Below, piece by piece: positions 1-42,000 of a DNA stretch of 64,000 bases. Source of the stretch: Gammaproteobacteria bacterium (GTDB taxonomy: Bacteria; Pseudomonadota; Gammaproteobacteria; JAURND01). The stretch covers positions 897,118-961,117 of the forward strand of contig JASGJS010000001.1 in the NCBI GenBank assembly GCA_047601185.1. Direction: 5' to 3'. The position numbers are program-made. Position 1 is the first letter of the stretch, and each line of letters opens with the position of its first letter.

Positions 1-3000
1 ATTAGTGGCGGTGCATTGACCATCCCTTACCTGATTTACTTCAAATTGCCGATTCGTCAAGCGATGGGAGCGTCGACCGCGTGTGGTGTGATGATTGCTT
101 TAGTGGGTACAATTAGTTTTATCCTATCGGGTTGGAGTGAAGGGCAGGCGATTCCTTGGTGCAGTGGGTTTGTGTATTGGCCAGCGGCTTTGTTGATTGC
201 TGCTGCCAGCCCGTGGTTTGCCACCCTAGGGGCATCATTGTCGCATCGCTTACCCGTCAATGCTCTGCGTAAGATATTTGCAGGGTTTTTGTGCTTAGTG
301 GGTTTGAATATGTTGTTGTAATACGATAGCAACCATTAAATAGGCTAAATATCTGAAAAGCGAGACGACCTTAGAGCCTAATGTGCTACACAACCGGCAG
401 CCATGAAGGGGGAGAGTACTTAAAGACACGCCGTGAATACGTCCCTGTAGGCTTCGCTTTTTCATCCATGAAAAAGAGAGTCTTTAAGTACTCTCCCCCT
501 TCATGGCTGCCTTGCTTGAGTGCTAAATAGGACGATTTTAGATGACCAAACTTCAGCCCTATCAAGGTTTAGGTTCTAAGGTCTCGTGCCAAATCGTACT
601 TAGAGGATTCATTTTCTTTTAGGAAAAAATATGCTGACTTACCCCAATATTAACCCTGTGGCCTTTCAGTTAGGCCCTATTACTGTGCATTGGTATGGCT
701 TGATGTATTTGCTGGGTTTTGCTTCTGCTTGGTTATTAGCCAATTATCGGGCCAGACGACCGCAAAGTGGCTGGACTACCGATCAAGTCAGTGACCTGAT
801 TTTTTATTGTGCCGTGGGCGTGTTATTAGGAGGGCGGATAGGATATATGGTGTTTTACGACGCGCCTGCCTTGATCGCGAATCCCTTAAATTTATTTAAA
901 GTTTGGCAAGGGGGTATGTCGTTTCATGGAGGGTTGCTAGGTGTCATCTTCAGCGTTTGGTTGTTTGCGCGCAAAACCCGCAAAGGTTTTTTTGTGGTGG
1001 GGGATTTTTTGGCACCTTTAGTGCCCTTGGGATTAGCCGCTGGTCGAATGGGCAATTTTATCAATGCCGAATTATGGGGGCGCGCCACCACCATGCCTTG
1101 GGGTCTCGTTTATCCTAAAGTCGATGCACTGCCTCGCCATCCTTCCGTCCTGTATGAATTTTTATTCGAAGGGATCGTATTATTCCTAGTCGTATGGATT
1201 TATTCTGCTAAGCCTAGGCCTGTCAAAGCGGTCTCGGGTTTATTTTTATTAGGCTATGGCAGTTTCCGGTTTTTGATTGAATTTTTCCGTCAACCAGATA
1301 ATCAATTGGGATTTGTGGCTTTTCATTGGTTGACGATGGGGCAATTGCTGTCCATCCCTATGATTATTTTTGGCGCAGCATTGATGATGATGGCTTATAA
1401 ATGCTGGAATGGCTGTGAGCTATCAGGAAACACTTAAAATTTTTGGTGTGGTGCCTTCTCCCCTTTTTTTGTGGGAGAAGGTGCCGATAGGCGGATGAGG
1501 GGGACTTACAAGTTCTTTTTGAAAGATTTTTTAACCCCCTCATCCGGCCTATTCGGCCACCTTCCCACCAGGGGAGAAGGGAACCACCTCAAACTTTTGC
1601 AGGATTTCGATCTCTGTACTTGAATGGTTACGATTATTTTTAGGACATCCCATGAAAACCTATTTAGACTTTCTCCGCACCATCAAAGACCACGGTGTCC
1701 AAAAAAACGACCGAACCGGCGTCGGCACGCTCAGTCTATTTGGGTATGAAATGCGCTTTCCTTTAAGTGAAGGATTTCCCTTAGTCACCACCAAAAAACT
1801 CCATCTGAAAAGTGTGATTCATGAGTTGCTCTGGTTTCTCCAAGGCGACACCAACATCAACTATTTAAATGAAAATAAAGTGACGATTTGGGATGAATGG
1901 GCGGATGATCAGGGTAATCTCGGGCCAATTTACGGTAAACAATGGCGAGCTTGGCATACGCCGCAAGGTGAGATCGATCAGCTGCAGCGGTTAATCCATG
2001 ACATTAAAACCAATCCTGATTCGCGGCGCTTAATTGTCTCTGCGTGGAATGTCGGCGAATTAGATCAAATGGCGCTCCCGCCTTGCCATTTATTATTCCA
2101 ATTTTATGTGGCGAATGGCACTTTATCGTGTAAATTAACCCAGCGCTCTGCGGACGCATTTCTGGGGGTGCCGTTCAATATCGCTTCGTATGCCTTATTA
2201 ACCACCATGATTGCCGATCAATGCCAGTTATTACCCGGCGATTTTATTTGGTCCGGGGGCGATTGTCATATTTATCTCAATCATTTGGAGCAGGTCGAAG
2301 AGCAATTACAACGCACGCCACTGCCATTGCCACAATTAAAAATTTTGCGTCGGCCGCCTTCATTATTTGAGTATCAGTATGAGGACTTCCTCATCGAAAA
2401 TTATCAAGCCCACCCCAGTATCCGAGCGCCCATTGCCGTCTAATCTTGTTGCAGTCACGTGTTCTGTTGCAGAAGAAAATTTACAGCAAGCGGCGCGGCA
2501 ATTAGCTGAACGTTTAAAGTTACCGTATTGCACTCAACTTTCAGAAGATTACCGCTATTTTTTGACGGTAACCCCTGACAAATTAATTTTGCAAATGCCA
2601 ACCAGTGCGCATAAACCGGTATGTGTGGATTTTTTAAGTGCGCCCTTACAACACAGGCTGCGGTTTGGCGGCGGAGAGCTCATTGCTAAAGCGGTGGGAG
2701 TCAAGCCTCAGCATAAACTGTCTGTGTTAGATCTCACAGCAGGATTTGGCACTGATGGTTTTATTCTGGCGCAATTGGGCTGTCAAGTACAATGGGTAGA
2801 GCGCTCTCCTTTGATTGCGGCGTTGTTAGAAGATGGATTGCGGCGATTACACCAAGTGAATCCTTCACTCTCTCTTCAATTAATTGTAGACGATGCGCAA
2901 ATCTATTTATCGCAACTTCCTGGAACTCAGCGGCCCGATGTGATTTATTTAGATCCCATGTTTCCTGAACGTAAAAAAACCGCGCTGAATAAATTATCCA

Positions 3001-39000: not shown

Positions 39001-42000
39001 AAATATTTTAGCGTTCTTTCGACGCAATTATCGACGGGTCGCACTGTTGCATATTGAATCCGGTTGGGTGCCCCCCGACACCCGTGTCGAATTATTTGAA
39101 TCCGCTATTCGCACCGTCTGCGAACCTGTTTTCGAAAGGCCGTTACAAGATATTTCGTTTGCGCAATTACTGTCACGATTGTTTCAAGTGGCCAGCCGCT
39201 TTAAAATGGAAGTGCAACCCCAACTGTTTTTATTGCAAAAAACCTTATTCAATATAGAAGGCTTAGGGCGAAAGTTGTATCCACAACTCGATTTATGGGC
39301 CACCGCTAAACCTTTGTTAGAGCGGAATATTCGACAACGCTATAAACTCAAAGCCACTCTAAAACAAGCGCATGAAAAAGCGCCTTATGTGCTGAAGGAT
39401 TTAGCGATGCTGCCGGGATTATGGGCGGATTCATTGCAACAACAAAAACAGCAAAACTTGCAAGCAGTGTGGCAGCAAAAAAATCTGCCGAATAGAAAAA
39501 TGCATTCTACAGGATTTTTAAGGGGATTGGGGTTGGGGTGTTTGGTGCTCGCTGCGGTAAGTTATTTTATTTTACCCAGCGTAACGCCTTTATGGTATGG
39601 TATTACCGTAGGGGTAGGGGCTCTAAGTATGCTATTGGCAACCCGAGGTTATTCGGACACTTAAGTATTGAGTGGCATCAGCAGAGGCTCCCAAGTATCC
39701 ATAGTACTTAAGTATAAAGAAGCACCCAAGTAAGGCTGCAGGTGTCGGGGAGAAGTATTTAAGACTCTCTTTTTCATGGACGAAAAAGAGAAGCCTACAG
39801 GGACGTATTCACGGCGTGTCTTAAATACTTCTCCCCGACACCTGCAGCCGGATGTGTGGCACCGACCAATGCTTATGAGTGGCAATAAGTAAAAGACTTA
39901 TTCCCCCCTCATCCGCCTATCGGCACCTTCTCCCACAAAAAAGGGGAGAAGGGAACCACCTCAAAGTTTTGCGGGGTTTCGGTCTCGGTGCTTGAATAAA
40001 AAAAGAGGAGTGTTATGACAAATACGCTAAAAAAAATGTTAATCCTAACCTCAGGTGGAGACGCGCCGGGGATGAATGCCGCCATTCGCGCCGCGCTGCG
40101 CACCGCATTATCGCACGGGATTGAAGTGTATGGCTGTGAAGGCGGCTATCGCGGCTTAATCGAAAAAAATGCCTTTCCTTTCGCCTCGCGTGATGTCGCA
40201 AATTCCATTCAACGCGGCGGCACCATTTTAAAAACCGATCGCTGCGAAGAATTTCTCAAAAAAGAAGTCCGCGATGAATGCCGAGCCTATTTAAAATCAT
40301 TAGGGATTGACGCACTCGCCGTATTAGGCGGCGACGGCAGCTTTCGAGGCGCCTATACCCTAGAAAAAGAAGGTGGTCCTCGAACTGTCGGTATTCCTTG
40401 CACCATCGACAATGATATTGTCGGCACCGATTATACTTTAGGATTCGACACCGCCTGCAACACCGCCCTCCAAGCCATCGATAAAATTCGCGACACCGCC
40501 TTCAGCCTCAACCGCCATTTTTTAGTCGAAGTGATGGGAAGAGCCGCCGGTTTTCTCGCCGTCGATGTCGGCATTGCCGGTGGCGCTGAATTCATTTTGA
40601 TTCCCGAAGTCCCCATCACCGAAGCAGAATTGGTGCGATACATCCAAAATCGCCGTCGCAAAAAACTCGCCTCGATTATCGTTGTGGCAGAAGCCGGCTA
40701 TCCCGGTCGTAGCATGCGCATGGCAGAAAACATCAAAGCCATCAGTGGCCTCTCCTACAAAGTGTGTATTTTAGGCCATATTCAACGCGGCGGCGCCCCC
40801 ACCGTCAAAGATCGCAAAATCGCCTCCCTCATGGGCTATTTAGCGGTTGAATCCTTACTCAAAGGCGAAACCCAACAAATGATCGCCTGCCATGAAGATC
40901 GCTTAATTGCCGCACCCTTTCCAGATCCCTCACAAGGCGCACGGCATTTTACCCATGAAGAATTATTAAAGATTAATCAGATTATTTGCGGAATATAAAG
41001 TCATGCAGCCTGCGTCTCGTCGAACCTTCGCCATTATTTCACACCCCGATGCCGGTAAAACCACCCTCACCGAAAAATTATTATTATTTGGGGGTGCGAT
41101 TCAATTGGCAGGCACCGTCAAAGGCCGCAAAGCCAGCCGTCATGCCACTTCCGATTGGATGGAGCTCGAAAAGCAACGCGGCATTTCCGTCACCACCTCC
41201 GTGATGCAATTTCCGTATCGCGATCTAATCATGAACCTGCTGGATACCCCCGGTCACGAAGATTTTTCGGAAGACACCTACCGTACCTTAACTGCCGTAG
41301 ATTCCGCCTTAATGGTGATCGACGCTGCCAAAGGGGTAGAGCCACGCACCATCAAACTGCTCGAAGTGTGCCGACTCCGCAATATCCCCATTTTAACTTT
41401 CATCAATAAAATGGATAGAGACACCCGCGAGCCGATTGAATTGCTCGATGAAATTGAATCGATTTTAAAAATCCGTTGCGCACCGATGACCTGGCCGATT
41501 GGCATGGGCAAAGCGTTTAAAGGCGTCTACCATCTCAAACAACAAGCTATTTATCACTACAGCAGCGGCAAAGGCGAACGCATTCAACCTATCGAAAAAC
41601 TGGCGGGTTTAGACGATCCTAAACTAGAAACATTACTGGCCGAATACACCGCAGCATTCAGAGAAGAAATGCAGTTAGTATTAGGCGCAACCCATGATTT
41701 CGATCTGCAAGCTTATTTAGCTGGGCAATTAACCCCGGTATTTTTTGGATCAGCGCTCAATAATTTTGGTGTGAGAGAATTGTTAGACGCATTAGTGGAA
41801 TATGCTCCAGCCACTCAGCCCCGTAGCACTTTAACGCGTGAAGTTGCTCCAACTGAAGACAAATTCACCGGTTTTGTCTTTAAAATCCAAGCCAATATGG
41901 ATCCCGCCCATCGCGACCGCATTGCTTTTTTACGCGTGTGTTCAGGCCGTTACACCAGCGGCATGAAAATGCATCATGTACGCATCGGTCGCGATATTCA

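Follow-up and report, generated by a model that had tools for sequence, protein, structure and literature searches.

Location and organization of the elements

The window, by which we mean the whole 64,000-nt stretch of gammaproteobacterial DNA analyzed here, contains four copies of an intergenic hairpin element, designated A to D. Copy A lies between the end of a TauE-family gene and lgt, copy B between atpG and atpD, copy C between the divergent genes pssA and cls, and copy D between ubiB and pfkA. All four copies reported in the preliminary description are present where it placed them, and there are exactly four. The 28-nt core is matched at 428-455 (+), 18976-19003 (+), 25209-25236 (-) and 39790-39817 (-); chance would give none, and 100 shuffles yielded 0 matches. 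The covariance model R1, whose seed comes mainly from other genomes, with copy B outside it and Yersinia sequences left out, returned precisely these four as full copies. The features are as follows.

367-603, plus strand: copy A, whole unit
396-511, plus strand: three-helix module of copy A on the 'core' strand (R1 115.1 bits; pairs checked)
3262-3478, no strand assigned: distant relative, a near-perfect palindrome of 217 nt (R1 partial match, 21.6 bits)
18934-19091, plus strand: copy B, whole unit, from the atpG stop to the atpD start (R1 91.7 bits)
25133-25299, minus strand: copy C, whole unit, in the pssA-cls intergenic region (R1 110.1 bits)
39718-39871, minus strand: copy D, whole unit, between ubiB and pfkA (R1 113.9 bits)

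The units are 154-237 bp long and 73-93% alike in pairwise comparison. The outer flanks of copy A (GACCTTAGAGCC... and ...GGTCTCGTGCCAAATCGTACTTAG) are also found in copy B, a sharing that proved real, and another set is common to C and D; the inner part of copy A is as in C and D, so that this copy is a mosaic. The 217-nt palindrome folds at -150 kcal/mol and carries two CANGGANG motifs on the plus strand, at 3341 and 3364, 23 nt apart, and it lacks the ACGGCG part and the asymmetric architecture of the four copies. Other palindromic repeats are abundant in this genome.

Every copy had been said to lie just 5' of a gene start, and these prove to be ordinary intergenic positions, association with 5' ends not being a property of the family. 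Across the family there instead appears to be a tendency toward gene 3' ends, with single copies at 34 convergent and 15 divergent intergenic sites, both on crude ORF calls, a preference not seen in the four window copies. Insertion orientation relative to flanking genes is random (31 versus 31). Inverted doublets are frequent, and close inverted neighbors are always convergent (27 to 0). No neighboring protein family recurs in 100 loci. No recurring transposase lies near the copies, and there is none in the window among the REP-flanked ORFs, which are housekeeping genes. No evidence was found for the suggested docking site of an IS110-type transposase. One locus in E. coli has an IS110-like gene at a distance of 1.6 kb, outside the element, and among about 250 matches no interrupted copies were noticed.

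Three-helix structure of the heart

The heart of the element is a three-helix junction of P1, P2 and P3, which on the strand identified below as the selected one follow in the order P1 5' arm, P3, A, P2, GU, P1 3' arm. P1 is a helix of 30-33 bp that can have any sequence, and it closes a tight three-way junction carrying the two short hairpins P3 and P2. In copy A, P1 pairs 396-427 with 480-511 in a perfect 32-bp helix, P2 with its joiners occupies 428-455 and P3 approximately 457-479. The module of copy B (18946-19059) has divergent P1 and P3 stems, both compensated. That of copy D (39734-39849) has a perfect P1 of 32 bp, and that of copy C (25152-25269) has a P1 of 33 bp with one T.T mismatch. 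Hence the long stem that was thought perfect in A, C and D is so in A and D, and not in C. Copy C has a minimum free energy of -88 kcal/mol, with z = -12, on either strand.

What had been taken for a conserved, asymmetric, unpaired core is the third hairpin, P2. In a search that left the stem sequence free, 3 of 3 Watson-Crick pairs were found in 123 of 134 instances, with 8 different stem sequences. P2 reads GCC-UAC-[ANGGAN]-GUA-UUYAC-GGC on the selected strand, where GCC/GGC is an extension (P2b) predicted by RNAalifold, with the compensations GCU/AGC and GUC/GAC. The core is generally common to the copies, copy C being one base off the version first quoted (GTAAATAC). The loop of the small hairpin, described as invariant, reads CGTCCATG in copy D, which makes a G.U pair on the core strand; its stem does change between copies, as proposed, with copy B fully compensated relative to A, C and D.

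Selection on secondary structure, also proposed for this hairpin family, is supported by very strong covariation once more copies are added. In the multi-genome alignment, double changes occur in all 39 modeled pairs of P1 and P3, 88.7% of cells pair versus 37-41% when partners are slid, and covariation reaches a score of 0.94 versus about 0.16. Comparison of the P1 helices of copies A and D shows two-sided changes in 13 of 30 pairs and one-sided changes in none.

The selected strand

The single strand under selection is complementary to the one on which the preliminary description gave the element. On the core strand, A:C mismatches exceed G:T mismatches (71 versus 17, 171 versus 78 and 145 versus 51; p down to 1e-11), and the complement strand folds approximately 5.5 kcal/mol better in 93 of 103 and 90 of 102 copies. 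Two independent sets of copies agree on this strand asymmetry. The functional form would be a folded single strand, and the asymmetry in G.T pairs fits single-stranded DNA as well as it fits RNA.

Relationship to YPAL/RU-2

Elements of this kind are already known. The repeat family was described in 2006, and the window copies are diverged members of it. From the sequence comparison, there is little doubt that they belong to the YPAL/RU-2 superfamily (De Gregorio et al. 2006 J Bacteriol 188:7876; Delihas 2007, PMC2759123), with which they share the central sequence of core and small hairpin, the long-hairpin architecture, the intergenic location and a size of about 150-170 bp. The core and P3 form the center of the published Y. 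pestis RU-2/YPAL sequence, with 26 of 28 core bases identical, and what characterizes YPAL, a unit of about 168 bp that folds as a single long hairpin, contains internal inverted repeats and lacks TA termini, is found here as well. Model R1 unites both groups, with window copies at 92-115 bits and a Y. similis copy at 74 bits. The part shared with the Yersinia element is only the heart of approximately 55 nt: the arms cannot be aligned, neither they nor the termini are related to the Yersinia consensus, the P1 helix, perfect here, has bulges in Yersinia, and the host is not an enterobacterium of the sort that produces Ysr224-grade matches. No match to Rfam RF02770 (Ysr224) was obtained in the window at the gathering threshold of 70 bits (copy A, 22.9 bits), whereas the Y. 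similis copy scores 126.5 bits, an Acerihabitans copy 81.1 bits and a third enterobacterial relative 72.4 bits, above gathering. Of the 168 nt of YPAL, the Rfam model takes in 107 nt at the 5' end, read on the core strand and including the core and P3; it stops before the 3' arm and hence lacks P1 and P2, and its strand is opposite to the selected one.

YPAL has been described only from Yersinia and Erwinia (PMC2759123). We found the heart flanked by unrelated, self-complementary arms at 240 or more genome and metagenome loci, and all genome loci whose source is named to class level or lower belong to Gammaproteobacteria, the heart being nearly constant from Yersinia to Stenotrophomonas to Methylococcales. 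We infer that the window copies are mobile. New copies may descend from master copies whose selected strand can fold, which would explain arms that drift but keep their complementarity around an unchanging heart. A preference for sites immediately 3' of genes is attributed to YPAL. For the same element, insertion at or close to dyad symmetries and target-site duplications of 3-26 bp have been reported (PMC2759123), and the summary of De Gregorio et al. (2006) given there by Delihas states that it is co-transcribed with upstream genes and raises transcript levels. In either orientation the long hairpin could buffer mRNA ends here, an effect reported for YPAL.

The element also resembles other bacterial MITEs, including Correia/NEMIS, ERIC/RU-1 and RUP, which are non-coding hairpins of 100-200 bp that, as outlined in PMC2759123, are co-transcribed with neighboring genes and can affect mRNA fate. 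Those families keep terminal inverted repeats and TA duplications, whereas the YPAL-type family keeps only its center, with ends that vary from lineage to lineage and even from copy to copy. Integron attC sites resemble the element in that one folded strand of a given polarity is recognized, structure is more conserved than sequence and the stem varies. However, conservation in attC sites lies at the stem base (R''/R' boxes) and in extrahelical bases while the tip varies, the element keeps the tip while the base varies, and it has no integrase or cassette context.

The apical loops and CsrA

On the selected strand the apical loops of both P2 and P3 read CANGGANG, which is the CsrA/RsmE consensus. 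The positions in the window are as follows.

440-470, minus strand: copy A, loops at 440-447 (P2) and 463-470 (P3), 23 nt apart
18988-19018, minus strand: copy B, loops at 18988-18995 and 19011-19018
25194-25224, plus strand: copy C, loops at 25194-25201 (P3) and 25217-25224 (P2)
39775-39805, plus strand: copy D, loops at 39775-39782 and 39798-39805

The overall frequency of CANGGANG in the window is at the level of chance, and paired sites occur only in the four copies and the 3341/3364 relative, with a spacing of 23 nt in all five. Across the family, 95 of 134 instances have CANGGANG in both loops, 22-24 nt apart, with a start-to-start distance of 23 nt in 73 of these 95, and the motif is kept in divergent copies whose stems have changed. 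The SELEX-optimal CsrA consensus is RUACARGGAUGU, or A/UCANGGANGU/A, and a CsrA dimer can bridge two sites 10-63 nt apart (PMC6849547; PMC7652899), a range that includes the spacing in the element. P2 reads U-AC-ANGGAN-GU-A, with a stem of 3-4 bp and a hexaloop, and fits the optimal hairpin in its stem of at most 4 bp, a hexaloop closed by AC/GU and the sequence ACA-N-GGA-N-GU. P3 reads C-A-N-GGA-U-G. The CsrB/CsrC/RsmX/Y/Z sponges and CsrA-binding mRNA leaders similarly present GGA in the loops of hairpins, carry CA(N)GGA(N)G repeats and place two sites close enough for bridging. Homology of the sponges to the element is limited to the loops, with only a weak rsmX match of 28.5 bits, and unlike the sponges the element is dispersed, multi-copy, present in both orientations and enclosed by a 30-bp helix, and its binding of CsrA is a prediction.

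From these motifs a CsrA/RsmA dimer appears the most likely ligand of the heart, with P3 as a second site at bridging distance. Given an optimal hairpin in P2 and a second site in P3, transcripts that contain the selected strand should clamp CsrA, and RNA of the complement strand probably binds CsrA in vitro. The loop strand of copy B (minus) is the sense strand of the atp mRNA and that of copy D (plus) is the sense strand of ubiB and pfkA; the candidates for clamping here are transcripts of the spacers between atpG and atpD and between ubiB and pfkA, and possibly of the leader of cls. That CsrA binding is also the reason for the conservation of the heart is a closer call, which we place at or slightly below an even balance. 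CsrA gives no account of the conserved UUYAC bulge and GU joiner. Copies with the GGA strand in mRNA sense are no better preserved than others, and with orientation unbiased and preservation equal, selection by CsrA locus by locus is unsupported and conservation must act on propagation. In the literature searched we found no paper linking CsrA to YPAL or to MITEs, and in E. coli, the species of the CLIP-seq data, the element is rare (5 of 5426 genomes).

Alternative explanations

The main competitor, possible but less favored, is that the heart is a cis-acting recognition structure for a trans-acting enzyme that handles single-stranded DNA in folded form, as in the systems IS200/IS605 TnpA, RAYT, IntI-attC or XerCD-CTX; a dimer would then be bound by the two loops, which are identical, and the likeness to CsrA sites would be a coincidence. 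A strand-specific fold that tolerates G.T pairs and conservation that acts on propagation rather than at each locus are what it expects, and with arms of any sequence such recognition must be structural and central. The 27 to 0 geometry of inverted pairs suggests a DNA-level insertion rule, and the insertion at or near dyad symmetries with 3-26 bp duplications reported for YPAL points the same way. However, no candidate enzyme recurs beside the copies (100 loci) or in the window, target duplications are absent with Y1/HUH transposases and of fixed length with DDE enzymes, and the match to the CsrA optimum, in sequence, loop size, closing pairs, stem length and spacing, seems too specific to dismiss easily. 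A REP/REPIN-type element mobilized by RAYT (TnpA-REP), with GTAG serving as its recognition tag, is highly improbable. Like REP, BIME and REPIN elements with their RAYTs, ours are short intergenic palindromes acting as folded single strands, with frequent inverted doublets and with GTAGGC adjoining P3 on its 5' side, the arrangement of GTAG-tagged REPs (PMC3733652). The GTA of this motif, noted earlier as REP-like, is a stem strand that covaries with TAC in 8 types (GGG 44, GGA 16, GTG 4, GTC 2 and others, among them GAG), and the tag is therefore not invariant and not of the RAYT type. A conserved center with variable arms is moreover the reverse of REPINs, and RAYT is not linked to the element, no Y1 transposase being found beside copies in 100 loci or among the REP-flanked ORFs of the window.

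We give very little weight to the copies as independent sRNA genes (Rfam Ysr224) with their own promoter and terminator that act by base pairing in trans, although RF02770 derives from Yersinia RNA-seq and the multi-copy Ysr224 transcripts of Y. ruckeri have different expression profiles. Such differing profiles fit co-transcription with different neighbors, orientation relative to neighboring genes is random (31 versus 31), and neither flanks nor arms are conserved, so that there is no common promoter or terminator and none is seen in the model; the Rfam model itself covers 107 of 168 nt, without P1 and P2, on the strand opposite to the selected one. The sRNA family proposed in the preliminary description does not behave as one of stand-alone genes. 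It is just as improbable that these are passive palindromes whose stems are kept perfect by intrastrand repair or homogenization around a heart with no selected function. The perfect 32-bp stems of A and D, with approximately 40% mutual divergence and no half-compensated pairs, would suit such a process, as would a genome full of other palindromic repeats, but homogenization fails to explain a heart of approximately 55 nt kept from Yersinia to Stenotrophomonas to Methylococcales between unrelated arms, the strand-specific excess of G.U-compatible mismatches, or the constancy of the loops on covarying P2 and P3 stems.

The best overall explanation, to which we give about an even chance, would be that of non-autonomous, MITE-like YPAL/RU-2 (Rfam Ysr224) elements with a folded complement strand and CsrA as the likely ligand.

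Implications

The range of the YPAL/RU-2 family is extended far beyond Yersinia, across gammaproteobacterial orders, and the family acquires a defined structure of three helices and an assigned active strand. The Rfam 'sRNA', which has been counted as one of the most abundant in bacteria, is half of a mobile repeat, modeled on the strand that is not selected. The exact match of the loops to a CsrA site bears on the old question of what keeps the centers of these elements constant, and if CsrA binding is confirmed, mobile DNA would be linked to the wiring of the Csr/Rsm regulon. More speculatively, and rather against the balance of probability, YPAL-type elements might serve throughout the Gammaproteobacteria as mobile carriers of a CsrA/RsmA-binding module with two sites and high affinity, so that each insertion transcribed in the appropriate sense would add a CsrA clamp to its transcript. 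If so, the hundred or so copies per genome could jointly act as a dispersed CsrA sponge, and a transposable element would be spreading sites for a global post-transcriptional regulator, perhaps with CsrA as a host factor in the life cycle of the element.

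The four copies and their identity

The four copies of the 28-nt core in the window were confirmed by a search allowing up to three mismatches, which gave 0 hits in 100 shuffled sequences, and the covariance model of the element (R1), the check proposed in the preliminary description, likewise returned exactly four full copies.

Core matches in the window and the setting of each copy
428-455, +, core of copy A (367-603), between the end of a TauE-family gene and lgt
18976-19003, +, core of copy B (18934-19091), between atpG and atpD
25209-25236, -, core of copy C (25133-25299), between the divergent genes pssA and cls (pssA <- C -> cls)
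39790-39817, -, core of copy D (39718-39871), between ubiB and pfkA

The neighboring genes lgt, atpD, pssA, and pfkA are those that had been guessed from the sequence, and three details of the elements themselves were refined, in that copy C deviates from the quoted core at one base, the supposedly invariant loop is CGTCCATG rather than CATCCATG in copy D, and the long stem (P1) of copy C is 33 bp including one T.T mismatch instead of being perfect. P1 of copies A and D is 32 bp without mismatch, and between these two copies 13 of 30 pairs are changed on both sides, with no one-sided changes. The arms (P1 strands) of copy B are unrelated to those of the other copies, yet they are paired, and its small hairpin (P3) is fully compensated. 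A repeat finder linked A to C (98 nt, 87%), A to D (90 nt, 87%), C to D (68 nt, 93%), and A to B (62 nt, 73%). The copies are mosaic, the outer ends of A being those of B and its inner arms those of C and D, and copy A has ∼75 additional nt at its 3′ side, a pattern that could have arisen if repeat families had nested or recombined with one another. The core (433-442 and the other three cores) appears to share GTGAATACGT with a conserved stretch of 16S rRNA at ∼1375-1385, probably by chance.

An Rfam search of the window at gathering thresholds gave no match, and at permissive thresholds copy A scored 22.9 bits, below threshold, on RF02770 (Ysr224), on which a copy from Acerihabitans scores 81.1 bits and one from Yersinia similis 126.5 bits. 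The 168-nt Y. pestis RU-2 sequence, the same element that De Gregorio et al. (2006) named YPAL, is printed in Delihas 2007 (PMC2759123). The reverse complement of this sequence includes GACGCCGTAAATACATCCATGTAGGCTCGAGCCGCGCCATCCTTGGCGCGGACGC, the core and small hairpin of the preliminary description, and the Ysr224 consensus corresponds to the first 107 nt of the YPAL/RU-2 element. Hence, as judged by sequence similarity, the four-copy family is a diverged branch of the known YPAL/RU-2 miniature insertion sequence. Delihas's review describes the inverted repeats of YPAL as internal rather than terminal, without TA ends, the target duplications as 3-26 bp, and the insertion site as a dyad symmetry or adjoining one. 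It further reports that Yersinia species differ in whether a given site is filled or empty and that YPAL is co-transcribed with upstream genes. Ysr224 ranks among the most abundant "sRNAs" of bacterial genomes, and Y. ruckeri has several copies with differing expression profiles; this abundance and varied expression fit a repeat that is transcribed by read-through from its neighbors.

A scan with CGCCGTRAATACNTCCNTGTAGGC of one genome per species gave at least 120 loci and, among the matches listed, all those named to class or below are gammaproteobacterial, with a few labeled "Proteobacteria" only. The hosts among these matches include Xanthomonadales, Enterobacterales (Y. similis among them), Alteromonadales, Oceanospirillales, Pseudomonadales, Cellvibrionales, Methylococcales, Chromatiales, Legionellales, and others. 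Beyond the core, none of the fetched loci has anything in common with the window, and exact searches with AtpD and PfkA matched no record. In E. coli the element is present in 5 of 5426 complete genomes, in four of the five on plasmids within IS-rich segments, and was apparently imported there instead of being resident; the copies (L121 and L122, both 6001-6107) always lie in the same IS-flanked segment beside an iron-containing alcohol dehydrogenase gene. Carriage by phages was rejected, with just four matches in 2.9 million viral contigs, all having Yersinia-type arms.

A three-way junction

The sequence 5′ of the core is complementary to a stretch beginning ∼27 nt past the core, the arm pairing in 116 instances averaging 20.0 of 24 ungapped positions compared with 13.1 (maximum 17) when arms were swapped between loci. 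In a gap-free alignment of 50 instances, 88.7% of the cells are paired in the modeled structure versus 37-41% when partners are slid by one to three columns, the covariation score is 0.94 versus ∼0.16 in the slid controls, and double changes occur at 39 of 39 pairs, so that the covariation originally seen in the stems is borne out. P3, which had no role in choosing sequences for the alignment, is 93% paired and all nine of its pairs covary.

The core is not unpaired, as had been supposed. R1 matched 126 copies in genome loci and 124 in metagenome loci, and in those missed by the literal pattern the core covaries internally, TAC/GTA becoming CCC/GGG, TCC/GGA, or CTC/GAG. Because of this internal covariation the metagenomes were scanned with the stem positions left free, and 123 of the 134 instances have three of three Watson-Crick pairs in a hairpin within the core (P2), with eight stem types (TAC/GTA 54, CCC/GGG 44, TCC/GGA 16, CAC/GTG 4, GAC/GTC 2, and others). 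RNAalifold applied to the complement strand, opposite to the strand on which the core was first written, independently yields P1, P3, and P2, together with a GCC/GGC extension across the 5-nt bulge UUYAC, and in divergent copies this extension shows the compensations GCU/AGC (three times) and GUC/GAC as well as two U.G wobbles. Taken together, the covariation of P1 and P3, the pairing of P2, and its extension show that the element is a three-way junction with joiners of 0, 1, and 2 nt, rather than a hairpin whose bulge is asymmetric and unpaired.

The selected strand and its loops

Mismatches in P1 are strongly asymmetric, with A:C exceeding G:T on the core strand by 71 to 17 and by 171 to 78 (p = 4e-9), and by 145 to 51 (p = 1e-11) in an independent metagenome set. 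An A:C mismatch on the core strand is a G.U pair on the complement strand, and since the scoring and the covariance model favor G:U on the modeled strand, any bias would oppose this result. The complement strand is also ∼5.5 kcal/mol more stable in 93 of 103 and 90 of 102 copies, a difference that perhaps comes partly from the loops. From the A:C excess and the better folding energy, the selected single strand is the complement, reading GCCUACANGGANGUAUUYACGGCG, opposite to both the strand of the preliminary description and the Rfam model. The asymmetry is unlikely to stem from strand-biased mutation, as copies are found in either orientation with respect to genes and also inside one replichore-like stretch.

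On the complement strand the apical loops of P2 and P3 are both CANGGANG. The P3 loop is C-A-N-GGA-U-G on a stem of 9-11 bp, and P2 is U-AC-ANGGAN-GU-A, with a 3-4 bp stem and a hexaloop closed by AC/GU. These loops agree with the RsmE consensus A/UCANGGANGU/A and the CsrA SELEX consensus RUACARGGAUGU (PMC6849547, PMC7652899). The two motifs are spaced 22-24 nt start to start (23 nt in 73 of 95 instances), and a CsrA dimer can bridge sites 10-63 nt apart (PMC7652899). In 17 divergent copies the stems are altered and the loops retained. CANGGANG occurs in the window at chance level (15 and 11 sites versus ∼14 expected per strand), while pairs within 12-60 nt are confined to the four copies and a 217-nt near-perfect palindrome at 3262-3478 (-150 kcal/mol, z = -19), all with 23-nt spacing. 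The palindrome has the same two motifs but a symmetric architecture and may represent a sister family. We infer from the loop sequences that the complement strand may bind CsrA; the csrA gene is absent from the window, and our literature search found no paper tying CsrA to YPAL or MITEs.

Placement and propagation

Single copies at the fetched loci, by gene context (crude ORF calls)
Convergent intergenic: 34
Co-directional, core strand in sense: 31
Co-directional, complement strand in sense: 31
Divergent intergenic: 15

All four window copies had been placed just 5′ of gene starts, but their positions are ordinary intergenic ones, and single copies elsewhere favor gene 3′ ends by these crude ORF calls, without orientation bias. 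There was no sign of locus-level selection for the orientation that puts the GGA (complement) strand in the mRNA, copies with that strand in the mRNA sense being no better preserved. Given both observations, the constancy of the heart, the ∼55-nt conserved center, is best explained by selection on propagation rather than at each locus, such that new copies would arise only from masters able to fold on the complement strand and present the loops. Nothing else weighs as much against a reading in regulatory terms alone, and the same point would also fit recognition of the two loops by a putative enzyme acting on single-stranded DNA, an alternative to which we give only a tentative place, well short of an even chance. 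Replication-oriented insertion was discarded, as the window has no GC-skew switch, yet contains copies in both orientations.

No protein family recurs beside the element, the 403 ORFs from 100 loci clustering into housekeeping families only, and the element is therefore non-autonomous. Nor is there a consistent cargo: two inverted copies enclose a HigB/HigA-like toxin-antitoxin pair in one locus (L018, 2272-3822), probably by coincidence, but an ordinary ATP sulfurylase gene in another (L024).

Wherever copies of opposite orientation lie within 500 nt of each other their core strands converge, in 12 of 12 cases in genomes and 15 of 15 in metagenomes (27:0 in total).

Loci with convergent pairs
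L001, L014, L022, L027, L035, L038, L063, L068, L071
L074, L094, L097, L143, L144, L155, L176, L179, L183
L184, L195, L198, L199, L204, L216, L222, L224, L226

These pairs are not inverted duplications, as the arms of the partners differ, nor a by-product of convergent genes, as they are found in every gene context. Some are enclosed by larger inverted flanks (L022, L063, L097), as might be expected if the element inserted symmetrically into palindromic targets. Four copies in tandem on one strand were seen in a Saccharophagus MAG (L025, 3104-3753, period ∼180 nt) and a metagenome contig (L201, 9501-10737, period 240-450 nt).

Other repeats in the window

A second, REP-like family, AGCGGGC(A/T)AGC(T/A)GCCCGCGCTCCCAG, is far more abundant (more than 20 window copies), mainly as inverted pairs ∼150-200 nt apart that flank housekeeping genes and have conserved spacers between them. 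The window ORFs beside this family include no RAYT, and there was no Y1 transposase among ten REP-flanked window ORFs, all of which are housekeeping genes. A third family consists of the hairpin CCTTCTCCC-N-GGGAGAAGG plus GCCGATAGGCGGATGAGGGGG, with one copy ∼30 nt away from copy D.

Positions of the two families
AGCGGGC REP-like family: 3166-3215, 3528-3573, 4104-4153, 4225-4270, 10603-10801, 24191-24383, 30453-30651, 44627-44676, 46621-46824, 49558-49757, 52557-52756, 53638-53969, 57101-57290, 63649-63847
Third family: 1437-1625, 14728-14789, 15612-15673, 26514-26609, 30972-31066, 31194-31267, 35639-35831, 39899-39997, 44744-44824, 56117-56211

Implications

Our analysis retains the earlier claim of a structure under selection, but not those of an unpaired core, a REP-like tag, an association with gene 5′ ends, or a novel kind of element. 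The window element joins the YPAL/RU-2 family as a new and diverged member. Apparently undescribed are the breadth of this family across the Gammaproteobacteria, the three-helix junction, the strand polarity, the convergent-pair rule, and the exact CsrA-type loops. Transcription through copy A would be in the opposite sense and not yield the CsrA-type strand. That strand is expected in transcripts of the atpG-atpD (copy B) and ubiB-pfkA (copy D) spacers and, if transcription begins upstream of copy C, in the leader of cls.
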